A DNA stretch of 64,000 bases from a virus (lineage: Duplodnaviria > Caudoviricetes): positions 3,189-67,188 of IMG/VR virus record IMGVR_UViG_638276471_000001; one strand, written 5' to 3'. The position numbers and the translations under genes were made by a program. The notes under the pieces were generated by a model, which did no database searches, was not told the DNA's origin, and saw nothing but the letters and a program-made list of their open reading frames with translations. Of the stretch, positions 3,301-63,914 are shown piece by piece. The number at the start of each line of letters is the position of its first letter. The stretch's first letter is position 1.

Positions 3301-3372
3301 TCCTTCTCGGGGCTGGCGGGTCTGCCCCGCCGTGCAAGACCAACAATACGTCGACAGCGCGGTATTGTCTCC
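3301..3372 (-). promoter_or_regulatory. repeat expression cassette copy 1 (promoter + leader hairpin + RBS)
   Basis: Minus strand GGAGACA-ATACCGCGCTGTCGACG-TATTGT-TGGTCT-TGCACGGCGGGGCAGACCCGCCA...AGAAGGA. Confidence 0.8.
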
Positions 3373-3375
3373 CTC

Positions 3376-3951
3376 ATGCCTCGGATTCTTGGAATCGACA
3401 CTTCGCTTACCGGAACCGGCCTGGCCAGGGCCGTGCTCCCTGACGTGCAGCGCGGTGTCGACATGCCACGGGAGTGGCCCGCACAGGTCGACCTGGCCAC
3501 CGTCGGCGCGAGCAAGCCGAAGAAAGGCGATACCTGGCTGGCCCGGAGCCGTCGGGTGCACGAAGTGCTCGACGGCATCGCCGGTGCACTGGACGACGGC
3601 CACTACGACGCTGTCGGCCTGGAGGAGCTGGCCTACGGCGCGAAGGGCGACGCCGTGGTGGTGCTGCACTGGCTCTGGGGCGAGGTCGTCAACCTGGTGC
3701 GCCTGCGCGACATCCCGCTCTACCTGGTCAACGTGTCCGGCGTGAAGAAGTTCGCCACCGGCAACGGCAACGCCAAGAAAGACGAGGTGATGCTGGCGAT
3801 GGCGAATCGGTTCCCGCAGTACACGATCAAGGACAACAACCAGTCCGACGCGCTGGCGGTGTGCATGATGACAGCGCGGCATTGTGGCGTACCGTTCGAG
3901 ACCATGCCGCTCAAACACCTGGAGTCGATGACCAAGGTGGTCCAGCAGTGA
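3376..3951 (+). CDS. ruvC: RuvC-like Holliday junction resolvase
   Basis: ILGIDTSLTGTGLA, LEE, VKKFATGNGNAKKDEV and NNQSDALAV motifs. Confidence 0.9.
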   Translation: MPRILGIDTSLTGTGLARAVLPDVQRGVDMPREWPAQVDLATVGASKPKKGDTWLARSRRVHEVLDGIAGALDDGHYDAVGLEELAYGAKGDAVVVLHWLWGEVVNLVRLRDIPLYLVNVSGVKKFATGNGNAKKDEVMLAMANRFPQYTIKDNNQSDALAVCMMTARHCGVPFETMPLKHLESMTKVVQQ

Positions 3952-4268
3952 CCGCCACCGAACAGCCGCGCACGGGAACGTTCACGATGGACTTCCGGCA
4001 CGGCAAGTCCGACCCGCTCCCCTACACTGCCACCGCCGAGCAAATCCGCTACGCCACCGAGCAGGCCGCCAGGCGAGACCAGTTCATCGCCGCACTGCAC
4101 CACGCGAACCCGGCCATGGCCGACGCGTGCTCGGTGTGCAACCCGCCGGTGCGCGCCGTGGAGAACGCATCCGAGCTGAGCTGGTGGATGCGCCCGCTGC
4201 TGCGGTTCCGGCGCTGGCGCTACCAGGCACTGACCCGTTTCGCCGACTGGCTGGAGGACCGAGCATGA
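3948..4268 (+). CDS. hypothetical protein
   Basis: GTGA overlap with ruvC; fills gap up to next ATGA overlap. Confidence 0.6.
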   Translation: MTATEQPRTGTFTMDFRHGKSDPLPYTATAEQIRYATEQAARRDQFIAALHHANPAMADACSVCNPPVRAVENASELSWWMRPLLRFRRWRYQALTRFADWLEDRA

Positions 4269-4603
4269 CCATCGACGTTTTGGCCTGGCTGGTTGTCTAC
4301 GCGCTGGCCGCCGCGCGCGTGACCCGACTGATCAACTTCGACGCGGTGCTGGACCGGCCCCGGGTGGCGCTGGTGCGGCTGGTGCGCGGCAACCCGGTGG
4401 TCGTGTACTTCATCCGGTGCCCGTGGTGCGTCAGCATCTGGGTCACGCTCCCAACGGCGTGGATCCCGCTCTGGCATTGGGACAACCGGGCATTCCAGGC
4501 CGTCGCCGTGGCGCTGGCCGTGAGCCACCTGATCGGTATCGCCGCGCCGCTGTCGTCCGACGACGACAGCGACGTGGAGGTCGCTGACGATGACGAGCTG
4601 TAA
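4265..4603 (+). CDS. membrane protein, DUF1360-like
   Basis: LAAARVTRLI..D, CPWCVSIW, hydrophobic segments, acidic tail. Confidence 0.7.
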   Translation: MTIDVLAWLVVYALAAARVTRLINFDAVLDRPRVALVRLVRGNPVVVYFIRCPWCVSIWVTLPTAWIPLWHWDNRAFQAVAVALAVSHLIGIAAPLSSDDDSDVEVADDDEL

Positions 4604-4629
4604 CACCTTCGACCGCTACCGTTAGCGTC

Positions 4630-15923: not shown

Positions 15924-15993
15924 TCCTTTCGGGTGGGCGGGTCTGTCCCGCCGTGCAAGACCAACAATACGTCGACATCGCGGTGTTGTCTCC
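15924..15993 (-). promoter_or_regulatory. repeat expression cassette copy 2
   Basis: Near-identical core to copy 1 (CCCGCCGTGCAAGACCAACAATACGTCGACA on +). Confidence 0.8.
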
Positions 15994-16027
15994 CCCGTGG
16001 TGCGTGCCCGCGCGATAGCCTGAGCCG

Positions 16028-37667: not shown

Positions 37668-37739
37668 TCCTTTCTCAGGTGGCGGGTCCGTCCCGCCGTA
37701 CAACGCACATATTACGGCACGCATGGCTGCATTGTCTCC
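37668..37739 (-). promoter_or_regulatory. repeat expression cassette copy 3
   Basis: GAGACA-N18-TAATAT-N6-TGTACGGCGGGACGGACCCGCCACCTGAGAAAGGA. Confidence 0.8.
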
Positions 37740-37754
37740 TGATACGTTGACGCC

Positions 37755-43507: not shown

Positions 43508-43574
43508 GGTGTCTCCTGTTGCGTTGGCGTTGCGGTGGCGGTGCGGTGGCGCGCCCTGTGCGAGCGCGCCACCG

Positions 43575-43602
43575 ACATTACGTTGAGGCGGCGGTATTGT
43601 CC
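43575..43602 (-). promoter_or_regulatory. partial cassette (promoter/palindrome only) upstream of helicase
   Basis: ACATTAC-N12-GTATTGT on +. Confidence 0.6.
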
Positions 43603-43740
43603 AGCGTGCGGACGCAGGCGGCGCAGGAACCGTCGACCGTCCGGTCGTGGCGGTAGTCCCCGTGGCGTGCGCACACTGTCGGCAACCGGCGCTCAGCTGC
43701 GGCGTAGTAACCGCGCATGGTGGTGTATCCGCGCGACATG

Positions 43741-50899: not shown

Positions 50900-51015
50900 G
50901 TTGTGCCTCCTCGGCCTTCGTGGCGGGTGTGCCCGCCGTAGGGTTACCAGGTTTACCGGGTGCGGTGACCCGGGTCAAGGCGTCGGAGGGAAACGGTCGA
51001 CACCGCGCACAATGC

Positions 51016-51359: not shown

Positions 51360-51620
51360 ATTTTGCATGTCCCTTGACAACGCCGGTAAGCTCGTACCGC
51401 GCTCACCGGCGGAGGTACGAGCGCCGTGAGGACCGGTGTCAGAGAACCTGGTTATCGACAACGATCTATTTCCCAGGTACTATCGCGCGCGCGTGCGCGC
51501 GTACGTGTGCGCGCGCGAGGACGGGGTGTTGTGGGCGACCCCCATGGCCATGGTGTCTCCCTACCGGGGAGCCACCAGCCACCGGGAAGGCCAGACGGTG
51601 TCGACCGTTTTCGCAGGCCA

Positions 51621-51650
51621 GGAGACAATACCGCCGGTTCGCCGTATTGT
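51621..51650 (+). promoter_or_regulatory. partial cassette: rightward promoter, leaderless
   Basis: GGAGACA-ATACCGCCGGTTCGCCG-TATTGT-N8-ATG. Confidence 0.75.
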
Positions 51651-51658
51651 CGGTAACC

Positions 51659-52393
51659 ATGGCAACGAAGAAGAGCGCGCGCCAGGAGCCGATGACCCTG
51701 GCTGAGTTCGACCGGGCGGTCAACGAGCACGCTGGCAGCAACCAGGCGTTTGCTGCCACGGTCGTGGCCCTGTACAACGTGCGGCACGAGGCGGCCCTGG
51801 TGGCCGAGCGTCGCAAAGAGTGCTTCGAGCGGCTCAAGTCCTGCTTCGCGCGGGGTGAGCGGGTGGCCGCCGACCACAGCGGACGGCTTCTGCGGCAAAC
51901 GGCACCAGGGGAGCCGAAGGTGGTGCGCAGTGTGCCCAGCGCGGTGATCAAGAAATGCTCGCCGACGCTGTGGGAACAGGCCAAGGAGCCGGTGCCGTAC
52001 GTGCAGTGCAAACCCCCGGCGAAATGGCCGGTTGTGGCGGTGGAGCCGCTGCCGGAGGCACCCCCGGAGAACGCACCGCTGGCGGCGGCGCTGGATGCCT
52101 ACGAGGCGTTGGCACCGCGCGCCAAGGCGCTGCGGGAGATGGAAGAGGAGCTGGTGGACCGGCTCAAGAAGATCGGGGCGAACAACGGGTGGGACGGCCT
52201 GCCGATCGAGTTCGCCGACGGCTGGCAGGTGAGCCTGGCGCGCATGCAGTACAGCAGTGACAAGCTGGCCCGGATCGCGCCGGAAACCTTCGCTGCGCTG
52301 GCGGTGGAGACCACCCAGCAGCGTGCGCCGGTGGTCTATGTCGCCAAGCGCGGTGAAGGCCTGGCCGAGGATGAAGAAGACGACGGCGAGTGA
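51659..52393 (+). CDS. hypothetical protein
   Basis: MATKKSARQEP...; GC3-rich codons from 51659. Confidence 0.75.
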   Translation: MATKKSARQEPMTLAEFDRAVNEHAGSNQAFAATVVALYNVRHEAALVAERRKECFERLKSCFARGERVAADHSGRLLRQTAPGEPKVVRSVPSAVIKKCSPTLWEQAKEPVPYVQCKPPAKWPVVAVEPLPEAPPENAPLAAALDAYEALAPRAKALREMEEELVDRLKKIGANNGWDGLPIEFADGWQVSLARMQYSSDKLARIAPETFAALAVETTQQRAPVVYVAKRGEGLAEDEEDDGE

Positions 52394-52411
52394 CGGTTTA
52401 CCATGGTTACC

Positions 52412-52663: not shown

Positions 52664-52694
52664 GCCTTCGATGGCGGCGTGACCGGGTGGTCCG

Positions 52695-53036
52695 GTGAGC
52701 GCGTGCGAGCACGGGGTGCCGGTGACCGGGTACTGCGTGCAGTGCGACGTCGACGCCAAGGTGGCCGGGGGCATGGACCTGCCCGATGGCCTGTTGCCGC
52801 CGGAGCTGGTGGCCAAGGTGGACCGGGGCGAGGCCGACGCCGACGCCGCGCTCCAGCGGGTCATCGGCGTCTACGGCGAACACATCGCGCGCGGCAAGTC
52901 GCGCACCACCACGCTGCTGGCCACCACCGTGGGCCTGGAGGCCGCCGTCAGGGCGCAGGGCGTGGAGGTGCTGTGCGGCATGCTGGCGGTGGCGGTGGCA
53001 CGGTTGTACGACGTACGGGAGGCCAAGAAACGATGA
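52695..53036 (+). CDS. hypothetical protein
   Basis: CEHG...CVQC N-terminus; ATGA overlap downstream. Confidence 0.65.
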   Translation: MSACEHGVPVTGYCVQCDVDAKVAGGMDLPDGLLPPELVAKVDRGEADADAALQRVIGVYGEHIARGKSRTTTLLATTVGLEAAVRAQGVEVLCGMLAVAVARLYDVREAKKR

Positions 53037-53692
53037 GCGTGGCCCTGGCCAACGGTGACGACGGCGACGACGGCGGCGCTATCGAGCGCCCGGTGGATGA
53101 GACGCTGTGGGAGCGGCGCATGCAGGCGGTCAGCCTGCGCAACGCCGGGATGACCTTCTCCGAGATCGCGCGTATCCAAGGCATCAGCCCGGCCCTGGCG
53201 CGCCGGGACGTGGAGACCGCGCTGCGCGAGTTCATGTCCGGGGAGATCGACCAGCTGATCGCCCGGCACCGCTCGGTGCTGATGGACATGCAGCGCGCCA
53301 ACTACCGGGCCATGCTCTCGGGGTCCAAGGAGGCCGCCACCACGATCCTCAAAGGCCTGGAGCACGAGGCCAAACTGCTCGGCCTGTACGCGCCGACCCG
53401 GGTGGTCACCGGCGTCGGTGAGGTCGAGTTCTCCGAGCGTTTCGTCCAACTGGTCAACGCCATCTCCCCCGACACCCTCAAGGAGCTACTTCGTGGAGCA
53501 CAACACACCGGCGAACCCCGACAGCAACCCGTCGACGCCGAAGTCGTCCCTGACCCCGTGGCAGAAACGCCTGGCGGTGCTGGCGCAGAAGCTGGGCCCG
53601 GGGGTGAAGCTGGCGGTGCTGATGCCGCGCCAGCACGGGAACCGGCACCAGACCACGGTGGTGACGACGCCGACGGCTGGTCCAACCTGTGA
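53033..53692 (+). CDS. HTH protein, probable terminase small subunit
   Basis: RRMQAVSLRNAGMTFSEIA..GIS...RDV and AKLLGLYAP. Confidence 0.6.
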   Translation: MSVALANGDDGDDGGAIERPVDETLWERRMQAVSLRNAGMTFSEIARIQGISPALARRDVETALREFMSGEIDQLIARHRSVLMDMQRANYRAMLSGSKEAATTILKGLEHEAKLLGLYAPTRVVTGVGEVEFSERFVQLVNAISPDTLKELLRGAQHTGEPRQQPVDAEVVPDPVAETPGGAGAEAGPGGEAGGADAAPAREPAPDHGGDDADGWSNL

Positions 53693-53693
53693 G

Positions 53694-54227
53694 ATGCCGT
53701 CGGTGACGGACGTGGCCATCGACCACGACCACCTGGCGCAGCTGGTGGAACATCACGAGGTCAGCGCCCCCTGGCACCCCCACCTGGGCGCGGAGGCCAA
53801 GGCGGCCATCGTGTCCTCCTGCCTGGAGCGCGCCCGGGACTGGTGCACGGCGCACAGCGTGGAGGCCAACCTGTGCCAGTTCGAGCGCGTCACCGCCGGG
53901 GACGAGCGCGCCATCGGGGTGCGCTGGTCGGTCACGGTGGGCCACGGCACCAGCGCGGTGGCAGGCACCACCTGGAACGAGGTGGCCGCCCGCATGCACT
54001 GGACCTGGAGCGACCGCTGGCAGCACTGGCGCGGCTGGTTCGCCTCCATGGCGGCGGTGGCCGACGCGCACGCTCGGGCGCAGGCGGGCCTGGAAGGCGG
54101 CGGCGCGATGGTGCTCAGCCTGCCGGACAAACGCCCCACCTGGGCGGGCGGCACCGTCGGCCCGCACAGCTCGGCCTGTGACGGCGAGCCGCACCCCGGC
54201 CAGCCCTGCCCGGTCGACTGGCCGTAG
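53694..54227 (+). CDS. hypothetical protein
   Basis: Starts just after upstream stop; ends before terminator. Confidence 0.6.
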   Translation: MPSVTDVAIDHDHLAQLVEHHEVSAPWHPHLGAEAKAAIVSSCLERARDWCTAHSVEANLCQFERVTAGDERAIGVRWSVTVGHGTSAVAGTTWNEVAARMHWTWSDRWQHWRGWFASMAAVADAHARAQAGLEGGGAMVLSLPDKRPTWAGGTVGPHSSACDGEPHPGQPCPVDWP

Positions 54228-54237
54228 GCCACACAGA

Positions 54238-54271
54238 CAAAAGACCCCGCCGGTGAGGGCGGGGTCTTTTG
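54238..54271. terminator. bidirectional intrinsic terminator
   Basis: AAAAGACCCCGCC / GGCGGGGTCTTTT. Confidence 0.88.
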
Positions 54272-54346
54272 CGCGGTTACCAGTCGCTATCCAGGCGGCC
54301 AGCGTATCACTCGACCGGTGTGCACGGCGGCGTTAGGATCGGGCGC

Positions 54347-54652
54347 ATGTCTCCCGACAAACTGCCGGTCCTGCCCACCGTCGACAAGCGCCGCACGCAG
54401 GTGCCTGCGCCGGATCCCGAGGCGGTGGCCCGCCTCCAGAGCGCGACCGCCGAGCTGCGCCGGTTGGCCGACATCGCCCGCAACCTACCGACGGTGGTGA
54501 CCGTGCACGAGCGGTACGGCCAGCCACCCGGTGACCTCGCGTACACCCCGATTGAGGCCTGGACCCCACAGCAGGTGGCCATCGGCCAGGCATGGCTGCG
54601 CAACGAGATGGCCAAGGACTGGTGGCACGCCCAGGCGGCAGCTGCGCAGTGA
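54347..54652 (+). CDS. hypothetical protein
   Basis: TAGGAT-N7-ATG; GTGA overlap downstream. Confidence 0.6.
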   Translation: MSPDKLPVLPTVDKRRTQVPAPDPEAVARLQSATAELRRLADIARNLPTVVTVHERYGQPPGDLAYTPIEAWTPQQVAIGQAWLRNEMAKDWWHAQAAAAQ

Positions 54653-55206
54653 GCGACCAGGCGGTCTACGACACCGACACCGACTGGGCCAAGACCTGGG
54701 AACCCGACCACGGCCTGGTCCCGGCGGTGCTGGCCGCCGGTACCCGCCCGATTGCCAGCGTCCCGGCACGCCAGGACCGGTGCTGGCTGGTGGCCGGGCT
54801 GAAGGTGGCCGGGCTGACCGCCGATGACATTGCCGACCGCCTGCGGTGCTCGCTGCGGCTGGTGCGCACGCTGCTGGCCGAGGACATGACCAAGGTGTGC
54901 CTGGCGTACTTCGCCGAGGCCGATCATTTCGCCGATGAGCTGCGCCTGGTGCGCCACGAGCTGACCGTGCGCACCGTGCAGCTCGACCGGGAGCGCGCCG
55001 AGCACGGCCGGGTCCGCGAACAACGCGACCGGCTGATCGACATGGCGATCACCGGGGAGCCGGTGCGGCTGTGCCGCCACCAGCACCTGCTGGACAAGTA
55101 CAACACCTACGTCCATCCGCGCACCGGCAAGGTCAGTTGCCGCACCTGCCGCGCCGAGGCGGTCGAACGGTACCGGTCGAAACGAGAAACTGACATCACC
55201 AGGTGA
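54649..55206 (+). CDS. HTH protein with C-terminal Cys/His motif
   Basis: GLTADDIADRLRCSLRLVR; CRHQH...NTY...CRTC. Confidence 0.7.
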   Translation: MSDQAVYDTDTDWAKTWEPDHGLVPAVLAAGTRPIASVPARQDRCWLVAGLKVAGLTADDIADRLRCSLRLVRTLLAEDMTKVCLAYFAEADHFADELRLVRHELTVRTVQLDRERAEHGRVREQRDRLIDMAITGEPVRLCRHQHLLDKYNTYVHPRTGKVSCRTCRAEAVERYRSKRETDITR

Positions 55207-55213
55207 TGACAGC

Positions 55214-55570
55214 TCACCGGCGTCGCCGGGTCATGGCGCGCCCGGTGGCCCTGCTGGCGTTACCGCGCCGGTTGCCGCCCCGCACGGCCCCGCGCGTGGA
55301 GGCCTTGGCCCGGCCGCCGGAACCCCGCCGGTTGCCCCCGGCCCCGTGCCGGACCCGACTGCCCGCTGAGGCCAGCGCGAACTTGCCGCGCCCGCCCTTC
55401 TTGCCGCGCCGACTGCGGTCCAGCGTGCCGTTGGCGGCGGCGTTGGAGATGCGCGCGGCCTTCTCCTTGCTGTAGCCCTTGCGCCGCAGCGCCTCGTACA
55501 TGCGCGGTGCTTTGATCGACGGCCCGTGGCGGCTGGTGCCGCGCTGGGCCTCTATCCGTGGCTTGCTCAT
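55214..55570 (-). CDS. highly basic nucleic-acid-binding protein
   Basis: GPSIK...YEALRRKGYSKEKAARISNA plus Arg/Gly tail; alternative start 55579. Confidence 0.7.
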   Translation of the reverse strand: MSKPRIEAQRGTSRHGPSIKAPRMYEALRRKGYSKEKAARISNAAANGTLDRSRRGKKGGRGKFALASAGSRVRHGAGGNRRGSGGRAKASTRGAVRGGNRRGNASRATGRAMTRRRR

Positions 55571-55599
55571 GGTGGCCATGTTCCCCGTCGACCGTGCGG

Positions 55600-55902
55600 C
55601 TAACAGACCTCACGCACGGCCACCGGCACCTGGCCGCACCGGGCACGCATGATCGCGTTGCCCTGGCGGTGGCTGCACTGCGCACAGTGTGGGGCCAGGT
55701 TGTCCCGGCGGTAGGTGCCGCCTCGGATGTCCGGGATGATGCGGTCGGCGCACAGGTCCACCTCGTCCGGCCCGCACAGCACGCCACAATCCCAGCACGG
55801 CACCGTCTCGCCGTCCCCGCCCCACCCCGCCTCCGGGGACAACAGCCAGGCCTTGCGCCGGGCCCTGTCCGCCGAGCTGCCGCGCTGGTTACCGTTCGGC
55901 AT
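55600..55902 (-). CDS. HNH-like endonuclease
   Basis: CWDCG...DRIIP...GGTYRRDNL..HCAQC. Confidence 0.72.
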   Translation of the reverse strand: MPNGNQRGSSADRARRKAWLLSPEAGWGGDGETVPCWDCGVLCGPDEVDLCADRIIPDIRGGTYRRDNLAPHCAQCSHRQGNAIMRARCGQVPVAVREVC

Positions 55903-55993
55903 CGCCGGACTGCGCCAGTTCCTGGCGTTTGAGGTCGATGCCGATGGCCGATCCTTGCAGAAAGGCCAGGGCCAGGGTCAGCCAGTAGTTCAT
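55889..55993 (-). CDS. 34-aa hydrophobic peptide (MNYWLTLALAF...)
   Basis: GGAGGAG RBS, ATGA overlap; absent from ORF track. Confidence 0.5.
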   Translation of the reverse strand: MNYWLTLALAFLQGSAIGIDLKRQELAQSGDAER

Positions 55994-56214
55994 TGCTCCT
56001 CCAGTTCGATGCCGTGGTAGCGCCGCAGGTCGCGGCGCACGTGGCGGGACTGCATGTTGTCGGCGCTGGTGCCTGCGAAGGTGAGCAGGTAGCGCTCACC
56101 GTCGTAGACCTTCCAGTGACCGTTTCCGCCGAGCGTGACCCGCAGACCCGCACGCTCCAACTGCCGTTTGAGCTTGCGGGTCTGCTTGTCGGCAGGCCGT
56201 TGCCCCTTGCTCAT
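55990..56214 (-). CDS. HicA-like protein
   Basis: 74 aa basic; LERAGLRV..GGNGHWKVY...T.AGT.D...VRRDLRR; GAGGAG RBS. Confidence 0.65.
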   Translation of the reverse strand: MSKGQRPADKQTRKLKRQLERAGLRVTLGGNGHWKVYDGERYLLTFAGTSADNMQSRHVRRDLRRYHGIELEEQ

Positions 56215-56726
56215 GGGCGCTCCTCGATTGGCCACTCGGCCACGACCTGGCCGTTGGTGTTGAACACGCGCACGGTGTCCTGGAGCCGCCCGGCGGCACA
56301 GTCGCTGCACTTGCAGGTGTTGCGCACGTGCCGCCTGGCGGCCTTGCCCACCGGTGTGCGCCGGTCGGCGGCGATGTCCACCACCTGCGCGGCCAGCGGC
56401 CCCAACGGAGCACCGGGCGCGCCGTAGGCCTGCGCACAGGTCCTGCACCGCCAGCGCGCGCCGTTGTCGCACCAGCGCATGTCCATCAGCCGCACCACCC
56501 GGTCACATCCCGCGCACCAATGCTCGACCACGGTGGGGGTCGGCCCGGTCAGGTCCCCCATGCGCGCCAGTCGTGCATTGACCCTTTCCTGCGCCGAGCT
56601 GCGCGGGGTGCGGGTGCGCATCCTGCGATCCACGACGTAGGCCGCCGACCCGGTCACCACGCCCGCCACGGCGAGCTGGCTTTCGACCGGCCAGGAGGCG
56701 AACACCGCCAGCATGTCGCTCAGCAT
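56211..56726 (-). CDS. membrane-anchored Cys-rich protein
   Basis: N-terminal hydrophobic segment; CAGC, CRTC, CKCSDC. Confidence 0.6.
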   Translation of the reverse strand: MLSDMLAVFASWPVESQLAVAGVVTGSAAYVVDRRMRTRTPRSSAQERVNARLARMGDLTGPTPTVVEHWCAGCDRVVRLMDMRWCDNGARWRCRTCAQAYGAPGAPLGPLAAQVVDIAADRRTPVGKAARRHVRNTCKCSDCAAGRLQDTVRVFNTNGQVVAEWPIEERP

Positions 56727-56998
56727 GGCGCGGTGCCGGTGTAGGCGAACCAGAACGCCGCCACGGCGGCCAGGTCGGTGCCGGGCAGGTCCACCCCGAT
56801 GCGGCGGCGCACGAACCGGCCCTTGTCAGCGGCGGTGTCCGGCCCCACGTGCGCGTTGTGCTGGCGGCGCTCGTGCCGCACCCGGACCTTGCCGCACGCG
56901 CCGCAGTATTGGACGGCGCAGGTGGGAGGTCTCGACTCCAGCATCTGCCAGGCCTCGCACTCGTGGTGCGCGGCCCGGCGGCCCGTGCGGGCCTTCAC
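56720..56998 (-). CDS. hypothetical protein
   Basis: GTGA overlap; CGACG. Confidence 0.5.
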   Translation of the reverse strand: MKARTGRRAAHHECEAWQMLESRPPTCAVQYCGACGKVRVRHERRQHNAHVGPDTAADKGRFVRRRIGVDLPGTDLAAVAAFWFAYTGTAPC

Positions 56999-57306
56999 CG
57001 GGCCACCCCGAACCGGTTCTCCGGAACGAAGGTGTGACCGGGTCGTGCACCTTGCTCCTGGTGCACCGGGCACACCTTCACACGCTCCCAGACGCCGCCT
57101 GCCAGGATGTGCAGGTCGGCGTTGGCCTCGGCGTTGTAGGTGCACCCGCAGGCGGTGGCTACCTTCCGGGTGTACCTCGGCGGTGGCGGTTGCGTGGCCC
57201 GGTCCTCGGCGGCCTCCAGGGCCTCGGCAATGCGTTCGAGCGCGATCACCGCGCGTTCGGCCAGCGGTGCCAGGTCGGTCAGGTTGGGCATGCCGGGGAG
57301 CTTCAT
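56995..57306 (-). CDS. hypothetical protein
   Basis: ATGA overlap; ALERIAEALE; CGC...CPVH. Confidence 0.6.
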   Translation of the reverse strand: MKLPGMPNLTDLAPLAERAVIALERIAEALEAAEDRATQPPPPRYTRKVATACGCTYNAEANADLHILAGGVWERVKVCPVHQEQGARPGHTFVPENRFGVAR

Positions 57307-57614
57307 GCGTAGAACACTCCGTCCTTGCCTCGGTACACCTGGAACGACTCGCCGGGTTCGACCTCGGCCAGCATGCCGGGCAGTTCCTCGGGCAACACCG
57401 GGTGCAGGACGGTGACCAGCATGATCGACCGCAGGCTGATCTCGCCGCGCCCGGTGCCGTCGACACCTTCGAACTCGACCAGCTGGTATGTCTCCACGCC
57501 GCGCACGGTGCGCAGGCCGGTCACCCGGCGCACGTCGCTCATGCGCAGGGTCGAGGGGGCAGGTGCCAGGATGTCGCCTACCTCCAGCTTGGAGGCGTCG
57601 GTGATCACGGCCAT
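57303..57614 (-). CDS. hypothetical protein
   Basis: GAAAGGA RBS; LEVGDIL. Confidence 0.7.
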   Translation of the reverse strand: MAVITDASKLEVGDILAPAPSTLRMSDVRRVTGLRTVRGVETYQLVEFEGVDGTGRGEISLRSIMLVTVLHPVLPEELPGMLAEVEPGESFQVYRGKDGVFYA

Positions 57615-57676
57615 GGTGGTGTGTTCCTTTCGGGGAGAGGTGCCCGGCGACCGGGTGGCCGCCGGGTGGGGGTTGG

Positions 57677-57922
57677 TCAGGACTTGAAGATGGCGACCAG
57701 GAACTCGCCTCGGTGCGTGGCGTACCAGGTGCCGGACACGGACTCACCGTCGATGTCCACGGCGGCGATGTCGGCCGGGAGCGCGATGCGCACCTCCTCG
57801 GCCTCCAGTTCATCGACCATCTCGGCCACGGCGTCGCACGCCTCGGCCAGTTCGACATGCGTGCTGTACACCTCGTGGCTGGTGGCGTCGGCCTCGGTGG
57901 TGATGACGGTGTAGAGACTCAC
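57677..57922 (-). CDS. acidic hypothetical protein
   Basis: Downstream of cassette; GAAAGGA RBS. Confidence 0.72.
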   Translation of the reverse strand: MSLYTVITTEADATSHEVYSTHVELAEACDAVAEMVDELEAEEVRIALPADIAAVDIDGESVSGTWYATHRGEFLVAIFKS

Positions 57923-57927
57923 GGGGT

Positions 57928-57994
57928 TCCTTTCCTGGCGGGTGCGTCCCGCCGTACAGGTTCAACAATACGGGCCGGTGGCGGCATTGTCTCC
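57928..57994 (-). promoter_or_regulatory. repeat expression cassette copy 4
   Basis: GAGACA-N17-TATTGT-N6-TGTACGGCGGGACGCACCCGCCAGGAAAGGA. Confidence 0.8.
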
Positions 57995-58019
57995 GCAACG
58001 CCGCCACCGGTCGACGCGG

Positions 58020-58286
58020 CTACAGTTCGCCGCGCTCGTGCATCCGGCCCAGCGACTGGGTGTACTCGGTCAGCCACCCGGCCAGGTCGGCGGGGTTGGT
58101 GGCCTCGGCGTACACCTGGCCGTTCGCGTCGGCGATCAGCCACACCTCGCCATTGAACAGCAGGGCCATGGCGGCGGTGTCGGGATTCGACAGCTGCGCC
58201 GGGTCGATTTCCGGCAGCACCGCCGCCGGGCCGCCGCCCTCGGCGGCGTAGGTGGCGGCCAGGTGAATGGTGGTGGCGTTCGACAT
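58020..58286 (-). CDS. acidic hypothetical protein (MSNATT...)
   Basis: Single gene between two cassettes; GAAAGGA RBS. Confidence 0.72.
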   Translation of the reverse strand: MSNATTIHLAATYAAEGGGPAAVLPEIDPAQLSNPDTAAMALLFNGEVWLIADANGQVYAEATNPADLAGWLTEYTQSLGRMHERGEL

Positions 58287-58292
58287 GGTGTG

Positions 58293-58362
58293 TCCTTTCT
58301 CAGGTGGCGGGTCCGTCCCGCCGTACATGCACCACAATACGGTACACCGGCGGCATTGTCTC
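58293..58362 (-). promoter_or_regulatory. repeat expression cassette copy 5
   Basis: GAGACA-N17-TATTGT-N6-TGTACGGCGGGACGGACCCGCCACCTGAGAAAGGA. Confidence 0.8.
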
Positions 58363-58384
58363 GCCGCCGGTGCTCGCGTGCCAC

Positions 58385-58810
58385 CTAGTCGATGTCGCCG
58401 CGCAGGCGGCGGCGCTCGATGCGCGCCAGCAGTGACGTGCAGGCGCTGGCGTGCCGCTGGTTGGTCCGGGTGCGGCAGCACTCGCGCAGCTGGATCGCCT
58501 CGTTGGTCGAGGCGTCCCGCCCGCACACCACGCACTTGGGCCAGTCGAACCCCCCGGAGGTGTCGGCGAAGTAGCAGGTGTGCGCCTGCACGCCATTGGC
58601 GTCGGTGCCGTGGGCAGGCCGGGCCCCGGCCACCTCCGACCACGGCTGAGGCAGGAATCCGCCACGGGCGAACCAGGCGTCCAGCTCCAGCACCATGCGC
58701 GCCAGCTCGGCCCCGTCGGCAGGCGGGTCGCCTTGCAGGCGGTTTTCGTCCTCGCGCAGCACGTTCTGCGCCTCATCCACCAGCTGCGCCACCAGGGCGT
58801 CAGGATCCAT
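58385..58810 (-). CDS. hypothetical protein
   Basis: MDPDA...LDAWFARGGFLPQPW motif; Cys-rich tail. Confidence 0.7.
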   Translation of the reverse strand: MDPDALVAQLVDEAQNVLREDENRLQGDPPADGAELARMVLELDAWFARGGFLPQPWSEVAGARPAHGTDANGVQAHTCYFADTSGGFDWPKCVVCGRDASTNEAIQLRECCRTRTNQRHASACTSLLARIERRRLRGDID

Positions 58811-58961
58811 CTCGAACCACCTCTATCGCGGGGTGCGGGCCACGGCACCCGCCGGGCCTGGTGCACCGGATGTAACCGTCGGTGTACACCATGAGCCACC
58901 CGCACCCGCCGCGCACAATCGCGACGGGGACGGGGGCCACGGGGTTGAGCGGGGTGGGCAT
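58800..58961 (-). CDS. 53-aa hypothetical protein
   Basis: Fills gap between flanking genes. Confidence 0.4.
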   Translation of the reverse strand: MPTPLNPVAPVPVAIVRGGCGWLMVYTDGYIRCTRPGGCRGPHPAIEVVRDGS

Positions 58962-58962
58962 G

Positions 58963-59175
58963 TCAGCCCACCGCCACCCACTGCTGCACGGTCGCCAGCG
59001 CGTCGTCGTAGCTGGCGCTGGCGAACATGGCGTCGGTGAACTCGTTGCACGCCTCGCCGTGCCCGGCCTTGCGCAGGGCTCGCGTGACCCGGCCGATGAT
59101 GGCGAACACGTTGCCGTCCTGGCCAACCAGCGCCACCTCGACATCGGGGTAGCGCGGCTGGTCCTGCCCGCTCAT
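58963..59175 (-). CDS. conserved small phage protein
   Basis: VALVGQDGNVFAIIGRV..ALR.....EF......SYDDAL motif. Confidence 0.75.
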   Translation of the reverse strand: MSGQDQPRYPDVEVALVGQDGNVFAIIGRVTRALRKAGHGEACNEFTDAMFASASYDDALATVQQWVAVG

Positions 59176-59666
59176 GCGGTGGCCTTCAGCAGGTCCAGGC
59201 GCTGCTCCAGCGCCGCGCGGGCCTCCGCGATCTCATCGCCGGAGGCCTCCAGCACAGCGCGCGCCAGCCTGCGCACCTCGTCGTCGCGGTCCATCAGGAG
59301 CGGCACCGGGCCCTTGCCCTCGCGCTGCGCCCAGGTGCGCAGTCCGAAGGCCTCGTAGTCCTGCCAGCGCTCCGGGAGGTGGCCGTTGGCGACCGCCTCG
59401 AGCACTTCGTCGTAGCGGCGGGACTTGGTGTCCCAGTCAGCCTGGTCGCTGGCCAGCAGCTCGTCCAGCTTGGCCTTGTCGGCCGGAATCGACACCTTGC
59501 CGTTGCGGTCGGCCACCGCGCCGAGGCGCTTGCTGGCGACGCGCACGAAGGCGGCGTAGGCCTGTGTGACATCAGGATCATGGGTGAACTCGCCCAGGTG
59601 GAAATCGGCCACGGGGGTCGACTTGCGGTAGTCGGCCACATCGTCGTGGGTGCTGGGACGTGCCAT
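59172..59666 (-). CDS. hypothetical protein
   Basis: AAGGAG RBS; ATGA overlap. Confidence 0.72.
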   Translation of the reverse strand: MARPSTHDDVADYRKSTPVADFHLGEFTHDPDVTQAYAAFVRVASKRLGAVADRNGKVSIPADKAKLDELLASDQADWDTKSRRYDEVLEAVANGHLPERWQDYEAFGLRTWAQREGKGPVPLLMDRDDEVRRLARAVLEASGDEIAEARAALEQRLDLLKATA

Positions 59667-59732
59667 GGTGGTTCTCCTTGTGGTTGTGGTTGGTGCCTGC
59701 CCGGCGGGGTTGCCGGGCAGGCGGGGGAGCTT

Positions 59733-59954
59733 TCAGGCCGACCGGGTGTCGGTGATGGTGTAGCGGGCCTCCGGGGTCTCGCCCCGGAACAGGATCCCGG
59801 CCATGCCGTTGCCACGGCGGGCCAGGCCCTGGCCGGTGACGAAGCCGACCAGCGCGCGGCGCGCGCCGACGATGGTGGCGTGCTCGGTGGTGCGCACGTG
59901 GCCGGTGGCCGGGAACGCGATGCGCAGGATGACCGCGCCGGAAGTTGTGGACAT
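59733..59954 (-). CDS. hypothetical protein
   Basis: Downstream of variant cassette. Confidence 0.6.
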   Translation of the reverse strand: MSTTSGAVILRIAFPATGHVRTTEHATIVGARRALVGFVTGQGLARRGNGMAGILFRGETPEARYTITDTRSA

Positions 59955-59959
59955 GGGGA

Positions 59960-60034
59960 CCGCCTAACGGTTGGTGGCGGCTACCGTGCCGCCGTGCAAT
60001 CACTACATTACGGCGACCCGGCGGCATTGTCTCC
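59960..60034 (-). promoter_or_regulatory. repeat expression cassette copy 6 (covariant hairpin)
   Basis: GAGACA-N17-TAATGT; hairpin GGCGGC/GCCGCC replaces GGCGGG/CCCGCC. Confidence 0.75.
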
Positions 60035-60063
60035 GGGTAGAGGCCATGCCGCCGGGCACCGGC

Positions 60064-60594
60064 TCAGACTCCGAACCAGGTTGCGCGCCGGGTCGACTCG
60101 ACGCGGCCGAACGGCCCCATCTTCTCGGACACCGGCGGCTCGTTGCCGGGCGTCGGCCCGAGCAGCTTGTCCACGACCATCAGGTACAGGCTCGGCCAGT
60201 TGGCCTCACCGATGAACTCCAGCAGGCCGTTCCAGTTGTACCGGGAGGTGGTCTCCCCGGTGACCGCCCAGCGCACCGAGCGGCCGACGCGCCAGCCGAT
60301 GGCGGCGTAGCGGTACTCCCGACCGGACTGGTACTTCGTGAACGACACGACAGCGTGGTCGCCTTCGCCGCCCAGTTCCGGCATCCGGGGGCGCGAGGCC
60401 TCCAGCTGCGCCTGCGCCAGCAGGGCGGCCTGGCGACGCAGCTCGCGGGCGTGGCGCTCGGCCTCCTCGGCCGCCGCCATCAGGTCCATCGGCCTGCGCG
60501 GCGCGGCGGTGGTTACCGCCTCGGACGCCATCAGCTTCACCTGCTCGCGGTCCTGGTCGAACTGCACGTCTTCGGGGGTTTCGTCGGTGTACAT
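60064..60594 (-). CDS. hypothetical protein
   Basis: AGGAG RBS; Y.YAAI......W.VTG......W..LL motif. Confidence 0.72.
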   Translation of the reverse strand: MYTDETPEDVQFDQDREQVKLMASEAVTTAAPRRPMDLMAAAEEAERHARELRRQAALLAQAQLEASRPRMPELGGEGDHAVVSFTKYQSGREYRYAAIGWRVGRSVRWAVTGETTSRYNWNGLLEFIGEANWPSLYLMVVDKLLGPTPGNEPPVSEKMGPFGRVESTRRATWFGV

Positions 60595-60670
60595 GGTTCT
60601 CCTGTGGTTGTGGTTGTCGTGCGGGAGGTGGTGCCGGGCCACCGTACGATGACCCGGCACCGGGCGGCCA

Positions 60671-61741
60671 CTAGTTTGCGGCCGACAGCAGGGTGAAGGC
60701 CTTGGCCTTCGTGTCCGCGACCGTGGTGCTGGTGATGGTGCGGATGGCGCGGCGCACGCTGTCGGTGCCACGTGCGCGCGTGGCGGCCTTCATCGGGCCC
60801 AGCGGTGCCAGGTGGTCCAGGTACCGGGTAACGGCGTTGTACGCGCCGAACTGGGTGCCGTACCACATGGCCACGGTGTCGTCCTTGCGGTAGACCTCCA
60901 TCACCTTGGCGGCGGTCTCCAGGCGCTTGCCGCGCTTGACCTCGGTGTCGGCGGTGTCGGCCTCGAACACCTCGTTGAGCGCCTTGCGCACCCACTCGTC
61001 GTCGCGCTCGCGCTGTGCCATGGCCTCGAACTCGGTGCGCATGGTCTCGTCCAGCTTGAACGTCAAGCCCAGGATGCGGCGCACCTCTTCCAGGCGCACG
61101 TCGGCGTTGCCGGTGTGCCGGATCGACACCTGGGACACGGCGTTGGCCTCGGCCAGGCGCTGGGTGTTGGCGCACACCACCCGAACGGGGGAGATGACCG
61201 CGCGCAGAGCGCCCTGGCCGTCGTGGTGGTTGAACACCGCCAGGTACAGCTTGGTCACGTCCTTGAACCCGGTCGGCGCGGTCAGCTCCATGTGGTCCGG
61301 CATCAGCATGGTGACGAAGGTGCGCCGCCCGCCGTCCAGGGCACCGATGGTCTCGATGTGCGCGCCGGACTGGTCGCAGATGTTGTAGAGCAGGCCGGTG
61401 GTGGCCTCGTTCTGGAACGGCTGCCACCAGGCACCGATGACGCCCAGCGGCTCGGCGGCCTTGGTGACCGGGTTGGTGCGCAGGATCGTGTACCGGCCCG
61501 GTACGTCGACCAGTTGCGGTTCCGGCTGAACCTCCAGCTCGTTGCCGTCGGCGTCGTGGCGCACCGCGATGTCGGCGCGCAGCGGCACCTTGCGTACGTC
61601 CCAGTCGAGCATGTTGGCGGCCGCCAGGGCCTCCATCGGGTCCATCTTGTGGCCGACCTGCTGGCCGAGCTGGTGCCAGGCGTCGGTCTGGCTGTCGGCG
61701 AAGCTGACCACGCCGTTGGTGCTGTCGAGTTCGTGGGCCAT
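60671..61741 (-). CDS. DUF932 family protein
   Basis: MAHEL...AWHQLG...LDWDV, QN, ETIGALDGGR, HDG, PVRVVCANT, IRHT, YNAVT. Confidence 0.88.
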   Translation of the reverse strand: MAHELDSTNGVVSFADSQTDAWHQLGQQVGHKMDPMEALAAANMLDWDVRKVPLRADIAVRHDADGNELEVQPEPQLVDVPGRYTILRTNPVTKAAEPLGVIGAWWQPFQNEATTGLLYNICDQSGAHIETIGALDGGRRTFVTMLMPDHMELTAPTGFKDVTKLYLAVFNHHDGQGALRAVISPVRVVCANTQRLAEANAVSQVSIRHTGNADVRLEEVRRILGLTFKLDETMRTEFEAMAQRERDDEWVRKALNEVFEADTADTEVKRGKRLETAAKVMEVYRKDDTVAMWYGTQFGAYNAVTRYLDHLAPLGPMKAATRARGTDSVRRAIRTITSTTVADTKAKAFTLLSAAN

Positions 61742-61815
61742 GGTGTCCTCCTTGGTAGGCGGGTGGTTGTGGTGGGGTGGTGCGCGTTGTCCGGTCGCGC
61801 CCCCGGGTACCGAAA

Positions 61816-62073
61816 TCAGTGGGTCTTGGCGGCGACCCAGGTGGCGGCGGTGAGCGCCTGGCGGGCGGTGGCCCGGTCCAGGTCGATGACCGCGACGCGG
61901 GTCTGCGGTTCGCCAGCGGCGTTGGTGGTGTGGCCATAGGCGACCTCGTGGCTGAGGTCGTCCCAGGAGATGACCGCCGCCAGTTCGTCCTGCGCGATGA
62001 TCATGCCGTCGAGCAGGGTGGCGTCGTCCGCGTCGAGGTCCAGGGTGTTGGTGGGGGTGACGATGCTGATCAT
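61816..62073 (-). CDS. acidic hypothetical protein
   Basis: Downstream of cassette; GGAAGG RBS. Confidence 0.68.
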   Translation of the reverse strand: MISIVTPTNTLDLDADDATLLDGMIIAQDELAAVISWDDLSHEVAYGHTTNAAGEPQTRVAVIDLDRATARQALTAATWVAAKTH

Positions 62074-62078
62074 TTCTG

Positions 62079-62144
62079 CCTTCCCTGGCGGGTCCGTCCC
62101 GCCGTACACGAACGACATTACGTCAGAGACGCGGCGTTGTCTCC
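62079..62144 (-). promoter_or_regulatory. repeat expression cassette copy 7
   Basis: GAGACA-N17-TAATGT-N6-TGTACGGCGGGACGGACCCGCCA. Confidence 0.8.
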
Positions 62145-62145
62145 A

Positions 62146-62292
62146 CTACGCGAGCGGCCACAGAAACGCCGCTCCCAGGAACCCGGCAATGGCCACGGTT
62201 CCCCAGAACGCGACGGCGGCCTCGCTGTGCACCACGGCCAGCGCCAGGCAGGCCACGATGGCGGCCCCCAGGGCCACCAGGGCGACGGTCAT
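62146..62292 (-). CDS. 48-aa two-TM membrane peptide
   Basis: ATGA overlap; MTVALVALGAAIVACLALAVV...; absent from ORF track. Confidence 0.55.
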   Translation of the reverse strand: MTVALVALGAAIVACLALAVVHSEAAVAFWGTVAIAGFLGAAFLWPLA

Positions 62293-62426
62293 CGCGGACC
62301 CCCGCCCAGGCGCTGCCAGAACGCGAGTTCGCGCGCCAGGCGCTGTGCTGGCGTGCGGCGCGCGGCCACCGTGCGCCGGTACCAGGCCCGGCAGGCCGGG
62401 TCCGGCAGGTGCGGGATGCTGTTCAT
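62289..62426 (-). CDS. 45-aa basic peptide
   Basis: AGGAGG RBS; ATGA overlaps at both ends. Confidence 0.55.
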   Translation of the reverse strand: MNSIPHLPDPACRAWYRRTVAARRTPAQRLARELAFWQRLGGGPR

Positions 62427-62791
62427 GCGATGCCTCCTGGAAGTTCGGTGTGCAGCGCGGTGGCGTACCCGTAGTAATACCGCAGGTCAGCCGCCATGGC
62501 CTCGGTCATGAGCCGCACGGCGGCGTCCTGGTTGGCGTCCAGCCACGCGCGCAGCTCCGGTCCTGGCCTACCCGGTCCCGAGTAGGCCTGCGCCAGCAGG
62601 CGCTTCTTGCGCTCGATGCGCGCCAGCTCGGCCTGGTGGGCGAAAAACGCCACGAAGTTGGCCTCGCGGGCGTTGGCCGCCGCGCGCCGGTGGGCGCGCG
62701 CACGGCGACCGATGCCGTGCACCGGGCAGGTGACCCGGCGGCACCGGCGGGTGCCGGGTTGCTGGTAGTTCCAGCCGGTGGTGGTGGCCAT
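62423..62791 (-). CDS. hypothetical protein
   Basis: AAGGAG RBS; CRRVTCPVH. Confidence 0.65.
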   Translation of the reverse strand: MATTTGWNYQQPGTRRCRRVTCPVHGIGRRARAHRRAAANAREANFVAFFAHQAELARIERKKRLLAQAYSGPGRPGPELRAWLDANQDAAVRLMTEAMAADLRYYYGYATALHTELPGGIA

Positions 62792-62793
62792 GG

Positions 62794-62985
62794 TCAGCTC
62801 TCCTTGCTCTCGATGGCGACAACTTGGGACTCGTGCACGATCAGCGTGCTCAGCGCGGCGTCGTCCCAGCGGACGGCCACGTTGCGGGTGCCCGACGGCA
62901 GCGGCGCGTAGTAGCGCTCGAACGTCCCGGTGACGCCGGGGCGGGCGGCCAGGGCGACGCGGGTGTTGGGGGTGAAGTCCGGCAT
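62794..62985 (-). CDS. 63-aa SH3/KOW-like protein
   Basis: GAGGAGG RBS; RV.......GT.......VAVRWDD. Confidence 0.65.
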   Translation of the reverse strand: MPDFTPNTRVALAARPGVTGTFERYYAPLPSGTRNVAVRWDDAALSTLIVHESQVVAIESKES

Positions 62986-62989
62986 GGTG

Positions 62990-63060
62990 TCCTCCTCGGG
63001 CTGGCGGGTCCGTCCCGCCGTACAGGTACGACTTTACGTCAGGGTGGCGGCGTTGTCTCC
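62990..63060 (-). promoter_or_regulatory. repeat expression cassette copy 8
   Basis: GAGACA-N17-TAAAGT-N6-TGTACGGCGGGACGGACCCGCCA. Confidence 0.8.
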
Positions 63061-63080
63061 ACGCCGCCACCCGGTGGCGG

Positions 63081-63836
63081 CTAGGCCTTGGCGGCGGCCT
63101 CGCGGGCCGCCTTCAGCGCGGCCCGGCGGGCACGGCGGTAGGCGTTGTGCGCCTCACCGGAATTGCGCCACACGATCTTGCCGTCGCGCACGACCTGGTT
63201 CTTGGCCAGCTTGGTGCCTGCGGCCTTGGTGGCCACGATGGCCTCGGCGGCGGCCCGGTCACCGGCGGTGCCCAGGTCTTCCCACCCGGCGGCGGTCTTG
63301 CGCTGCGCGGCGAACTCGGTGACGGTCTTGCGCACCACCCGGTACAGCACCCCGGCGACCTCGGCGCGGTACTCGCCGCCCTTGTGGCTGCGGAACTTCG
63401 GGGTCTCGACGGTGGCCTCGGCCTTGTCCTCCTCGGTGGCGGCCTCGACCGCGCTGGCCAGCACGTCAGCGCCGGTGGCGACCTTCGGCGCGGCCTTCGG
63501 CGCGGCCTTGGCGGCCACAACCTCGGCGAAGGCCTCCGGCGCGATCTCGCCCCAGCCGTCGACCTCGGGGTGCCAGTCGCCCAGCTTGCCCGCCACGGCG
63601 GTGATCCTGACCGGCACCACGATGGCCTGGCCACCGAGCTGCTGCGCACGCTTCGCGCCGTACCCGGTGCGGGCGTTGGCCTCGGCGGCCAGCGAACTCT
63701 TGTGCCAGGTGTGCACGAAGGCCTCGCCGTCGGCCTGCACGATGATCGTGGCGGCGATGTACGGCATGGTGCCGGACGTGCGGGTCACGGTCTCGCCGTT
63801 CGGCAGGTCAACGGTGAAGGTGAACTTGGCGGCCAT
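63081..63836 (-). CDS. Ala/Lys-rich hypothetical protein
   Basis: 251 aa, single gene between two cassettes; GAAAGGA RBS. Confidence 0.78.
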   Translation of the reverse strand: MAAKFTFTVDLPNGETVTRTSGTMPYIAATIIVQADGEAFVHTWHKSSLAAEANARTGYGAKRAQQLGGQAIVVPVRITAVAGKLGDWHPEVDGWGEIAPEAFAEVVAAKAAPKAAPKVATGADVLASAVEAATEEDKAEATVETPKFRSHKGGEYRAEVAGVLYRVVRKTVTEFAAQRKTAAGWEDLGTAGDRAAAEAIVATKAAGTKLAKNQVVRDGKIVWRNSGEAHNAYRRARRAALKAAREAAAKA

Positions 63837-63842
63837 GGTGGT

Positions 63843-63914
63843 TCCTTTCTCAGGTGGGCGGGTCCGTCCCGCCGTACAAAGACCACATTACGTCGAAACG
63901 GCGGCATTGTCTCC
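63843..63914 (-). promoter_or_regulatory. repeat expression cassette copy 9
   Basis: GAGACA-N17-TAATGT-N6-TGTACGGCGGGACGGACCCGCCCACCTGAGAAAGGA. Confidence 0.8.

Follow-up and report, generated by a model that had tools for sequence, protein, structure and literature searches.

A promoter-like element, hairpin and ribosome-binding site repeated as one cassette before non-structural genes of a Rosebush-group mycobacteriophage and its relatives

What signal would a phage repeat, with fixed spacing and almost letter for letter, in front of one gene block after another? The question is raised by a stretch of mycobacteriophage DNA (the window; 64,000 nt, G000:C1:3189-67188 of a 67,188-bp virus record) in which nine copies of one intergenic sequence, here called the cassette, stand directly upstream of start codons. 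Each copy joins a promoter-like element to a hairpin and a ribosome-binding site (RBS). The G+C content of the window was 0.66-0.72 throughout. Its right 7 kb shared 99.3% identity with Mycobacterium phage Rosebush (Bclasvirinae, genus Rosebushvirus), a phage that we take to belong to cluster B2, and at least 99% identity with 22 records of the Rosebush group. Cluster B has more than 350 members and is among the largest groups of mycobacteriophages (PMC9262239). Gene numbers below refer to homologues mapped onto the window from the annotation of phage Calamitous.

The repeated unit in the window

Nine full cassettes were present, all on the minus strand and all with the same order of parts: GAGACA, 17 nt (18 in one), TAWTGT or TAATAT, 11 nt, GGCGGG-N5-CCCGCC, 13-21 nt with the RBS, and the start codon. 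The pattern GAGACA-N17-TAWTGT, with at most one mismatch, matched the window nine times where 0.04 matches were expected, a count that no shuffle out of 100 attained; eight of these matches were on the minus strand and one on the plus strand at 51622-51650. A tenth promoter site (37709-37738) had a spacer of 18 nt and TAATAT as its -10. The exact stem GGCGGG-N5-CCCGCC was found eight times against 0.11 expected (0/100 shuffles), each time inside a cassette, and the stem of the ninth cassette was GGCGGC-ACGGTA-GCCGCC (59976-59993). The nine copies were used to build a covariance model (R1), with which they scored 71.5-83.2 bits (E <= 5e-20). The distance from -10 to stem was 11 nt in all nine cassettes.

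In the alignments, similarity among the copies started 1-2 nt before the -35 and stopped at the RBS. The bases in the middle of the spacer varied, and AAYRCCGC after the -35 and CG before the -10 were fixed. Since conservation was confined to particular positions around a variable mid-spacer, it indicates selection on those positions rather than recent duplication. The initial annotation of this DNA had described nine full copies with fixed spacing and variable spacer bases, which the pattern counts, the shuffles and R1 all bore out; its proposal of one unit that joins promoter-like element, transcribed hairpin and RBS ahead of start codons was likewise supported. No further cassette occurred in the first 3188 bases of the genome, which lie outside the window.

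Distribution among phages and bacterial genomes

R1 and a hairpin-centred model (R2) were run on the whole records of twelve other phages. Copies were inspected one by one in eleven of them, and the 14 matches in the twelfth, Mortcellus, were counted only. Copy numbers per phage are lower bounds, covering the DNA within about 1.5 kb of model matches. In all eleven inspected phages, promoter, hairpin and RBS stood in the same order, with a promoter flavour that differed from phage to phage. These phages span seven further Bclasvirinae lineages, Gordonia phages of the genus Sourvirus and Tsukamurella phage TPA2; the unit, first noticed in a B2-type genome, was thus found in every inspected relative and beyond B2.

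PG1 carried TTGACA-17-TAACTT and Pipefish TTGACA-16-TATTGT, each in at least 13 copies. The form was TTGACT-18-TAGTGT in Stinger, TAGACT or TAGACA-17-TAACGT or TAACTT in Phelemich and LilMcDreamy, and TTGACA or TTGACT-17-TAATGT or TATTGT in Funsized. Tsukamurella phage TPA2 had TTGACA or TTGACT-17-TAAAGT or TAATGT, and the Gordonia phages Yago84, Sisko and AnarQue had TTGCGC-17-TAGTGT or similar. Saguaro contained GAGACA, TTGACA and TTGACT side by side. Every cassette inspected was oriented with its downstream gene, including plus-strand cassettes before plus-strand genes in PG1 (2360 and 2983), Pipefish (67758 and 68638) and TPA2 (58427).

With one cassette as the query, blastn retrieved 108 phage records (95 Mycobacterium, 10 Gordonia, 2 Tsukamurella and 1 Mycolicibacterium). 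The combination of TGTSA and the hairpin gave 30 single, scattered matches in 185,579 bacterial genomes (one per species), none of them in a record whose title names Mycobacterium, Gordonia or Tsukamurella. The same combination was found in 24 stretches of IMG/VR, mostly several per contig of 61-71 kb, and the B2-type promoter pattern gave no match in the scan of viral contigs. Because its multi-copy occurrence was restricted to phages and the host genera gave no matches, the cassette belongs to this lineage of phages and was not taken over from a host leader.

Promoter type

The -10 fitted the mycobacterial SigA form TANNNT in all nine cassettes and also at the promoter-like sites at 51622 (plus strand) and 43575. 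The spacer was 17 nt in eight cassettes and 18 nt in one, and GAGACA keeps four of the six bases of the TTGACA consensus. The initial annotation had seen in GAGACA the non-canonical -35 of a separate promoter class that might need a phage factor. Such a class, read by a factor that the phage encodes or by an alternative sigma factor, is compatible with the identity of GAGACA and the flanking AAYRCCGC in all ten promoters of the genome. It is also compatible with an invariant CGTA at the edge of the -10, which loosely resembles the CGT motifs of extracytoplasmic function sigma factors, and with the failure of the cassettes in a simple promoter scan by Escherichia coli consensus rules. We nevertheless consider it quite improbable. 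Homologous cassettes in sister phages carry TTGACA, a spacer of 16-18 nt and TAACTT, TATTGT or TAATGT; TTGACT, TAGACT and TAGACA occur as well, and Saguaro has cassettes with GAGACA as well as otherwise alike ones with TTGACA or TTGACT. None of ten candidate regulators scanned contained a sigma-factor domain, and infection could not start if all non-structural units required a phage factor. The TTGACA-bearing homologues and the Saguaro mixture argue that the -35 is a derived SigA-type element and no evidence of a new class; TTGACA with changes particular to the lineage is the best interpretation of GAGACA.

The leader hairpin

Pairing was evaluated in an alignment of 63 hairpin copies from eight genomes, in which two misaligned rows, both with 4-nt loops, were counted as broken. 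Of all cells, 98.9% were paired, compared with 39-53% when the partner strand was slid. Double changes were seen in three of the six pairs (four cells), and the observed values were not reached in any of 500 shuffles. Each of the six pairs was unchanged in 59-63 of the 63 copies, two of them never varying. A re-alignment with R2 at E <= 0.001 was nearly all canonical; its 148 rows included many duplicates of overlapping loci and were left out of the covariation analysis.

The compensatory change GGCGGC/GCCGCC at 59976-59993, to which the initial annotation had pointed, is real in the sequence. Further paired variants were GACGGG/CCCGTC (TPA2 54828), AGCGGG/CCCGCT (twice in AnarQue, and PG1 15817) and GCCGGG/CCCGGC (Pipefish, Mortcellus, Yago84 and Sisko). 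Wobble variants on the sense strand were GGCGGG/CCCGCT (Stinger and AnarQue) and GGTGGG/CCCGCC (TPA2). Among the mismatched copies, about nine, eight of them from Gordonia phages and one from Phelemich, had A.C as their outermost pair, and one had a T.C. The stem sequence therefore changes very rarely, and pairing is kept when it does. In the loop, positions 1 (A) and 4 (G) were at least 90% conserved and not mirror-symmetric.

A permissive scan of 13 genomes returned 216 hairpin-like sites in all, background included, of which 100 had TANNNT 8-18 nt upstream, and the gap was 10-12 nt in 82 of these 100. The hairpin was part of the minimum-energy fold of all nine predicted leaders, with the Shine-Dalgarno sequence mostly open, and on its own had a folding energy of about -12.6 kcal/mol.

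Possible roles of the hairpin

We put the chances at about even that the cassette is a host SigA promoter with a short leader that opens with a 5'-terminal protective stem-loop beside a strong RBS. Mycobacterial promoters start transcription 6-8 nt past TANNNT, usually at a purine, and transcription from the cassettes is predicted to start about 7-8 nt past the -10, at the G of a conserved TGYAC. Host RNA polymerase of the SigA type would then produce a leader of about 34-42 nt. Its RNA would open with about four unpaired bases, followed by a stable, G+C-rich hairpin of 6 bp; the start codon, preceded by a strong Shine-Dalgarno sequence, would come 13-21 nt beyond. The hairpin would act in cis, restricting decay enzymes that depend on the 5' end (RppH, RNase E and RNase J) and keeping the adjoining RBS free. 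All non-structural units could in this way be strongly expressed, presumably early, from one standard start module without a phage factor. Such a stabilising role fits known 5' stabilisers, of which ompA, papA and aprE are listed among the references of PMC3997798, and the preference of Mycobacterium tuberculosis RppH, which in the relevant passages of PMC12988327 acts less on 5' ends that are structured in their first 20 nt.

Several observations weigh against a purely protective hairpin. The constancy of the stem exceeds what structure as such would need, while promoters and loops have diverged, and the near-frozen sequence hints at sequence-specific recognition. RppH might still act on the four or so unpaired 5' bases predicted here, since the enzymes of E. 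coli and Bacillus subtilis need only two according to PMC12988327 and PMC3997798. The free 5' end would be longer still in Stinger, where the gap between -10 and stem is 13-14 nt, and the Saguaro hairpin at 68208-68224 had no recognisable promoter upstream. The folding z-scores of whole leaders (-1.7 to 0.04) were ordinary for their G+C content.

Because the stem is nearly frozen in sequence, two explanations that invoke a binding protein stay alive. In one, which we regard as possible but rather unlikely, the hairpin is a sequence-specific RNA tag bound by a conserved phage or host protein. The tag might load an antiterminator in the manner of boxB/nut, bind a translational activator or repressor, or protect the message from a phage-induced RNase. 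With the same reservation, GGCGGG-ANNGN-CCCGCC might mark the phage's own early messages, and the protein would either load an antitermination factor or exempt phage mRNAs from decay or translation shut-off; to our knowledge this would be the first such mRNA-tag system described in actinobacteriophages. The near-invariant stem and the conserved A and G of the loop would suit a tag, as would the constancy of the hairpin across phages of three host genera with diverged promoters. Variant stems with changed sequence but intact pairing persist, which speaks for structure instead. Homologues of two DNA-binding-type, helix-turn-helix (HTH) proteins (53039-53692 and 36430-36819) were present in all five hairpin-bearing phages tested, and those of a ribbon-helix-helix protein in three of the five, but the gene-rich overlap among these phages means that such co-occurrence says little. 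Leftward operons with long internal hairpins could offer targets for read-through, but those hairpins have no U-tails. No RNA-binding, antiterminator or RNase domain was detected in the ten proteins scanned.

One of the two HTH candidates, the product of 53039-53692 (plus strand; Rosebush gp65, phrog_645), carries a legacy label of 'RNase E'. This label was rejected as evidence for a phage RNase, as the protein had no RNase E/G domain and only weak Pfam matches to HTH families. A PDB sequence search with it found nothing, and its single-sequence AlphaFold model was poor (predicted local distance difference test score 60.6) and helical.

In the other explanation the inverted repeat would be an operator in double-stranded DNA at about +5 to +21, where a dimeric phage repressor would close the promoters later in infection; conserved bases of the -35/-10 spacer could serve as a second site. 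A perfect 6-5-6 palindrome of high sequence constancy in a classical roadblock position is what such an operator would look like, HTH proteins are conserved through the lineage, and the conserved spacer bases are phage-specific (AAYRCCGC in the window, CCGAC..GKCGGG in PG1 and CACCACCA..GTAGG in TPA2). The centre of the repeat is asymmetric, with the A conserved on the sense side only, and for this reason a single-stranded reading fits better than a dimer site. Double changes, moreover, restore pairing instead of keeping a half-site. Internal wobbles are G.U or U.G on the sense strand and A.C is limited to the outermost pair, few as these cases are (3 against about 2 independent origins). A temperate life cycle is not known from the phages of cluster B, and we judge an operator unlikely.

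That the hairpins are terminators or insulators ending transcription of the upstream unit appears very improbable. They do lie at unit boundaries, and it has been proposed that mycobacterial terminators include G+C-rich hairpins that have no U-tail. No T-run followed the stem on either strand (3' flanks AGCCCC, CACCCG and ACCTGA), and no cassette hairpin was among the six terminator-like sites found in 50000-64000. Each hairpin is downstream of its own promoter and would stop its own transcripts, and three cassettes lie within the rightward late operon, which must read through. Where genes converge (15555-15612 and 39800-39915), the phage has canonical hairpins that are long and end in T-rich tails.

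Hairpins of another kind were seen in cassette-free gaps of leftward operons (60595-60670, 59667-59732, 57615-57676, 36820-36906 and 43508-43577). Each gap contained one hairpin of 10-14 bp with an unrelated sequence. These long operon-internal hairpins were followed by a C/A-rich tract (ACCACAACCACA-like) and an RBS, without a U-tail, and possibly represent processing or 3'-protective elements.

Comparison with known elements

The stabiliser leaders of ompA and papA in E. coli and of aprE in B. subtilis belong to single host genes and are unrelated in sequence, whereas the phage reuses one 17-nt hairpin at least nine times per genome and near letter for letter across the lineage. The phi10 promoter of T7 also combines a promoter with a 5' stem-loop leader and a strong RBS. 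It resembles the cassette as a standard phage promoter whose transcript opens with a stem-loop ahead of a strong RBS, but T7 uses its own RNA polymerase and its leader hairpin is not kept at all of its promoters, whereas the cassette promoter has the form of a host SigA one. The lambda boxB/nut sites and the phiC31 inverted repeats are likewise short conserved hairpins or palindromes near the starts of early transcripts and are bound by a phage protein. The cassette occurs in many more copies per genome than nut.

The start-associated sequences (SAS) of cluster K phages are, in the part of PMC3203893 that describes them, a multi-copy intergenic motif in one orientation before the start codons of non-structural genes, found across subclusters. 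They differ in being an asymmetric 13-bp motif at the RBS itself, and the inverted repeats of extended SAS do not covary as RNA (same part of PMC3203893), whereas the unit of cluster B has a promoter among its parts and a hairpin that does covary. The SAS motif GGGATAGGAGCCC, with at most two deviations and 3-7 bp before start codons, had one match in the window against 1.63 expected, and this match was not at a cassette. The chance-level count agrees with the distinction from SAS drawn in the initial annotation.

Stoperators are asymmetric 13-bp repressor sites of temperate phages. Their 13-bp motif, GGTGGMTGTCAAG, matched the window twice against 3.38 expected, which is chance level. Like the cassettes, the stoperators of cluster A, mentioned in PMC3203893, occur in many oriented copies in short intergenic gaps; they regulate transcription. 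Cluster O genomes have eight or nine strongly predicted SigA-like promoters each, some driving leftward genes within the structural operon and some giving leaderless mRNAs, and the promoter section of PMC4351075 describes no shared leader hairpin for them.

The M23 RNA motif of Rfam (RF03006) resembles the hairpin and RBS of the cassette in its consensus, which ends in ggCGGg-N5-cCCGcc followed by aGGAAAGG, and differs by an extra upstream stem and by its place before M23 peptidase genes. Identity with RF03006 was rejected, as the best score was 27.9 bits against a gathering cut-off of 41.2 and the model also matched seven of 14 unrelated control genomes. No Rfam family reached its gathering score in the window.

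A full-text literature search found no description of the cassette, which does not establish its absence from print. Neither repeated intergenic motifs of mycobacteriophages nor 5' stabiliser hairpins are new as kinds of element; what appears to be new is their combination, the copy number and the conservation across phages of three host genera. If a SigA promoter with a protective leader is the correct interpretation, gene starts across an entire lineage follow one compact standard, made up of promoter, 5' hairpin and RBS. The phages would then provide a natural, repeated test system for how structure at the 5' end controls the lifetime of mycobacterial mRNAs, which is a topic of current research. 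The cassettes might also serve as ready-made short expression cassettes for mycobacterial genetics and supply a working rule by which start codons and the limits of operons can be placed in these genomes, and as direct repeats they may act as recombination points that shuffle gene modules.

Genes downstream of the cassettes

Cassette-led units held one to eight genes, and three of them formed leftward islands inside the rightward structural operon. No cassette was located before structural genes in the window. Every leftward gene block opened with a cassette or a degenerate copy except the gene-62 homologue, which was preceded by a consensus TTGACA-18-TATAAT on the minus strand (51359-51330). 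The initial annotation had expected units of one to a few small genes of unknown function; small units do occur, but others are as long as eight genes, and degenerate copies lead the blocks with DNA polymerase/primase and helicase.

All nine cassettes and their targets are on the minus strand. Cassette 1 (3311..3373; 77.4 bits with R1) comprises the -35 GAGACA (3366-3371), the -10 TATTGT (3343-3348) and a hairpin at 3315-3331 with the loop GCAGA, and leads over its RBS to ATG 3293 of the gene-8 homologue (156 aa, DUF6884). Cassette 2 (15932..15994; -35 15987-15992, -10 15964-15969, hairpin 15936-15952; 77.9 bits) lies inside the rightward tail/head operon and precedes the homologues of genes 23-22. 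Cassette 3 (37677..37740; hairpin 37681-37697; 71.5 bits) is the copy with the 18-nt spacer and the -10 TAATAT. It is followed by the homologues of gene 46 (ATG 37659), gene 45 (HTH) and gene 44 (DNA-binding). The gene-46 homologue (36907-37659, minus strand) matched no Pfam family and is followed by these two DNA-binding genes. A similar-looking N-terminus (ATGGCCACCCCGTTCGAC-like) was seen after a cassette in PG1, Pipefish, Saguaro and AnarQue, and more diverged ones were seen in Stinger, Funsized and Phelemich.

Cassette 4 (57933..57995; hairpin 57937-57953, loop ACGCA; 74.9 bits) stands before GTG 57922 and the homologues of genes 78 to 71. Cassette 5 (58302..58364; hairpin 58306-58322; 78 bits) implies ATG 58286 as the start of the gene-79 homologue, one case to which the rule for calling starts applies; the start annotated in Calamitous corresponds to window position 58337, within the -10 of this cassette. 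Cassette 6 (59972..60035; 74.4 bits) has the variant stem GGCGGC/GCCGCC with a 6-nt loop (59976-59993) and precedes the homologues of genes 84 to 80. Cassette 7 (62083..62145; hairpin 62087-62103; 78.9 bits) leads to ATG 62073 and the homologues of gene 87, gene 86 (DUF932) and gene 85. Cassette 8 (62999..63061; 81.2 bits), with the -10 TAAAGT and a hairpin at 63003-63019, stands before the homologues of genes 92 to 88. Cassette 9 (63853..63915; hairpin 63857-63873; 83.2 bits) precedes ATG 63836 of the gene-93 homologue (251 aa).

Most of the gene-91 homologue was missing at 62750-62790 in comparison with Calamitous and Rosebush, about 34 bp being alignable, and a length difference of about 320 bp in the megablast matches is explained by this. 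By homology to Calamitous, the left end of the genome (G000 bases 1-3188 and window positions 1-1148) encodes ParB-like, DpdA-like, QueC/D/E-like and FolE-like proteins, a set for 7-deazaguanine modification of DNA.

Partial copies and other intergenic features

Promoter-only copies had been annotated at three places, with unequal outcomes. The plus-strand copy at 51620..51661 (GAGACA-17-TATTGT at 51622-51650; 31.5 bits with R1) is solid and lacks the hairpin. The ATG at 51659, which is in frame, follows its -10 by 8 nt, and the annotated start is at 51692; the rightward block of genes 64-70 may be leaderless or nearly so, with the gene-64 homologue starting at 51659 and not 51692. The copy at 43544..43603 (minus strand; 25 bits) is a weaker, moderate case in which TGGACA-17-TAATGT (43575-43603) overlaps the 3' end of the gene-52 homologue; a 13-bp hairpin of unrelated sequence comes next, ahead of genes 51 to 49 (helicase). 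The copy at 51009 (50958-51036, minus strand) was rejected, as its score of 5.7 bits (E 2.9) was not significant.

The hairpin that had been annotated as standing alone at 50921 is present, with a 4-nt loop (GGCGGG-CACA-CCCGCC, 50922-50937, minus strand; 12 bits and E 0.038 for 50918-50940), but may not be hairpin-only. Upstream of it are TTGACC (50973-50978), 17 nt, TAAACC (50950-50955) and 12 nt, and an RBS and a GTG follow. The site may therefore be a degenerate full copy (50918..50978) whose promoter part is read from the sequence. It adjoins the block of genes 61 to 52 (DNA polymerase I, primase) on the upstream side.

The divergent control region at 51300-51660 contained, besides the perfect TTGACA-18-TATAAT at 51359-51330, alternating CG/CA tracts at about 51318-51330 and 51484-51520. 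The 14-mer GGTGTCGACCGTTT occurred in inverted orientation at 50991-51004 (minus) and 51597-51610 (plus). The region may be a regulator-binding or origin region. A second intergenic motif, GGGGGCGCG(A/T)CCGG(A/C)CAACGCGCA, was present on the minus strand in two copies against 0.01 expected (61781-61804 and 44599-44622). About 38 bp around the copy at 61781-61804 showed approximately 95% identity to unannotated DNA of many mycobacteriophages with genomes of 45-49 kb.

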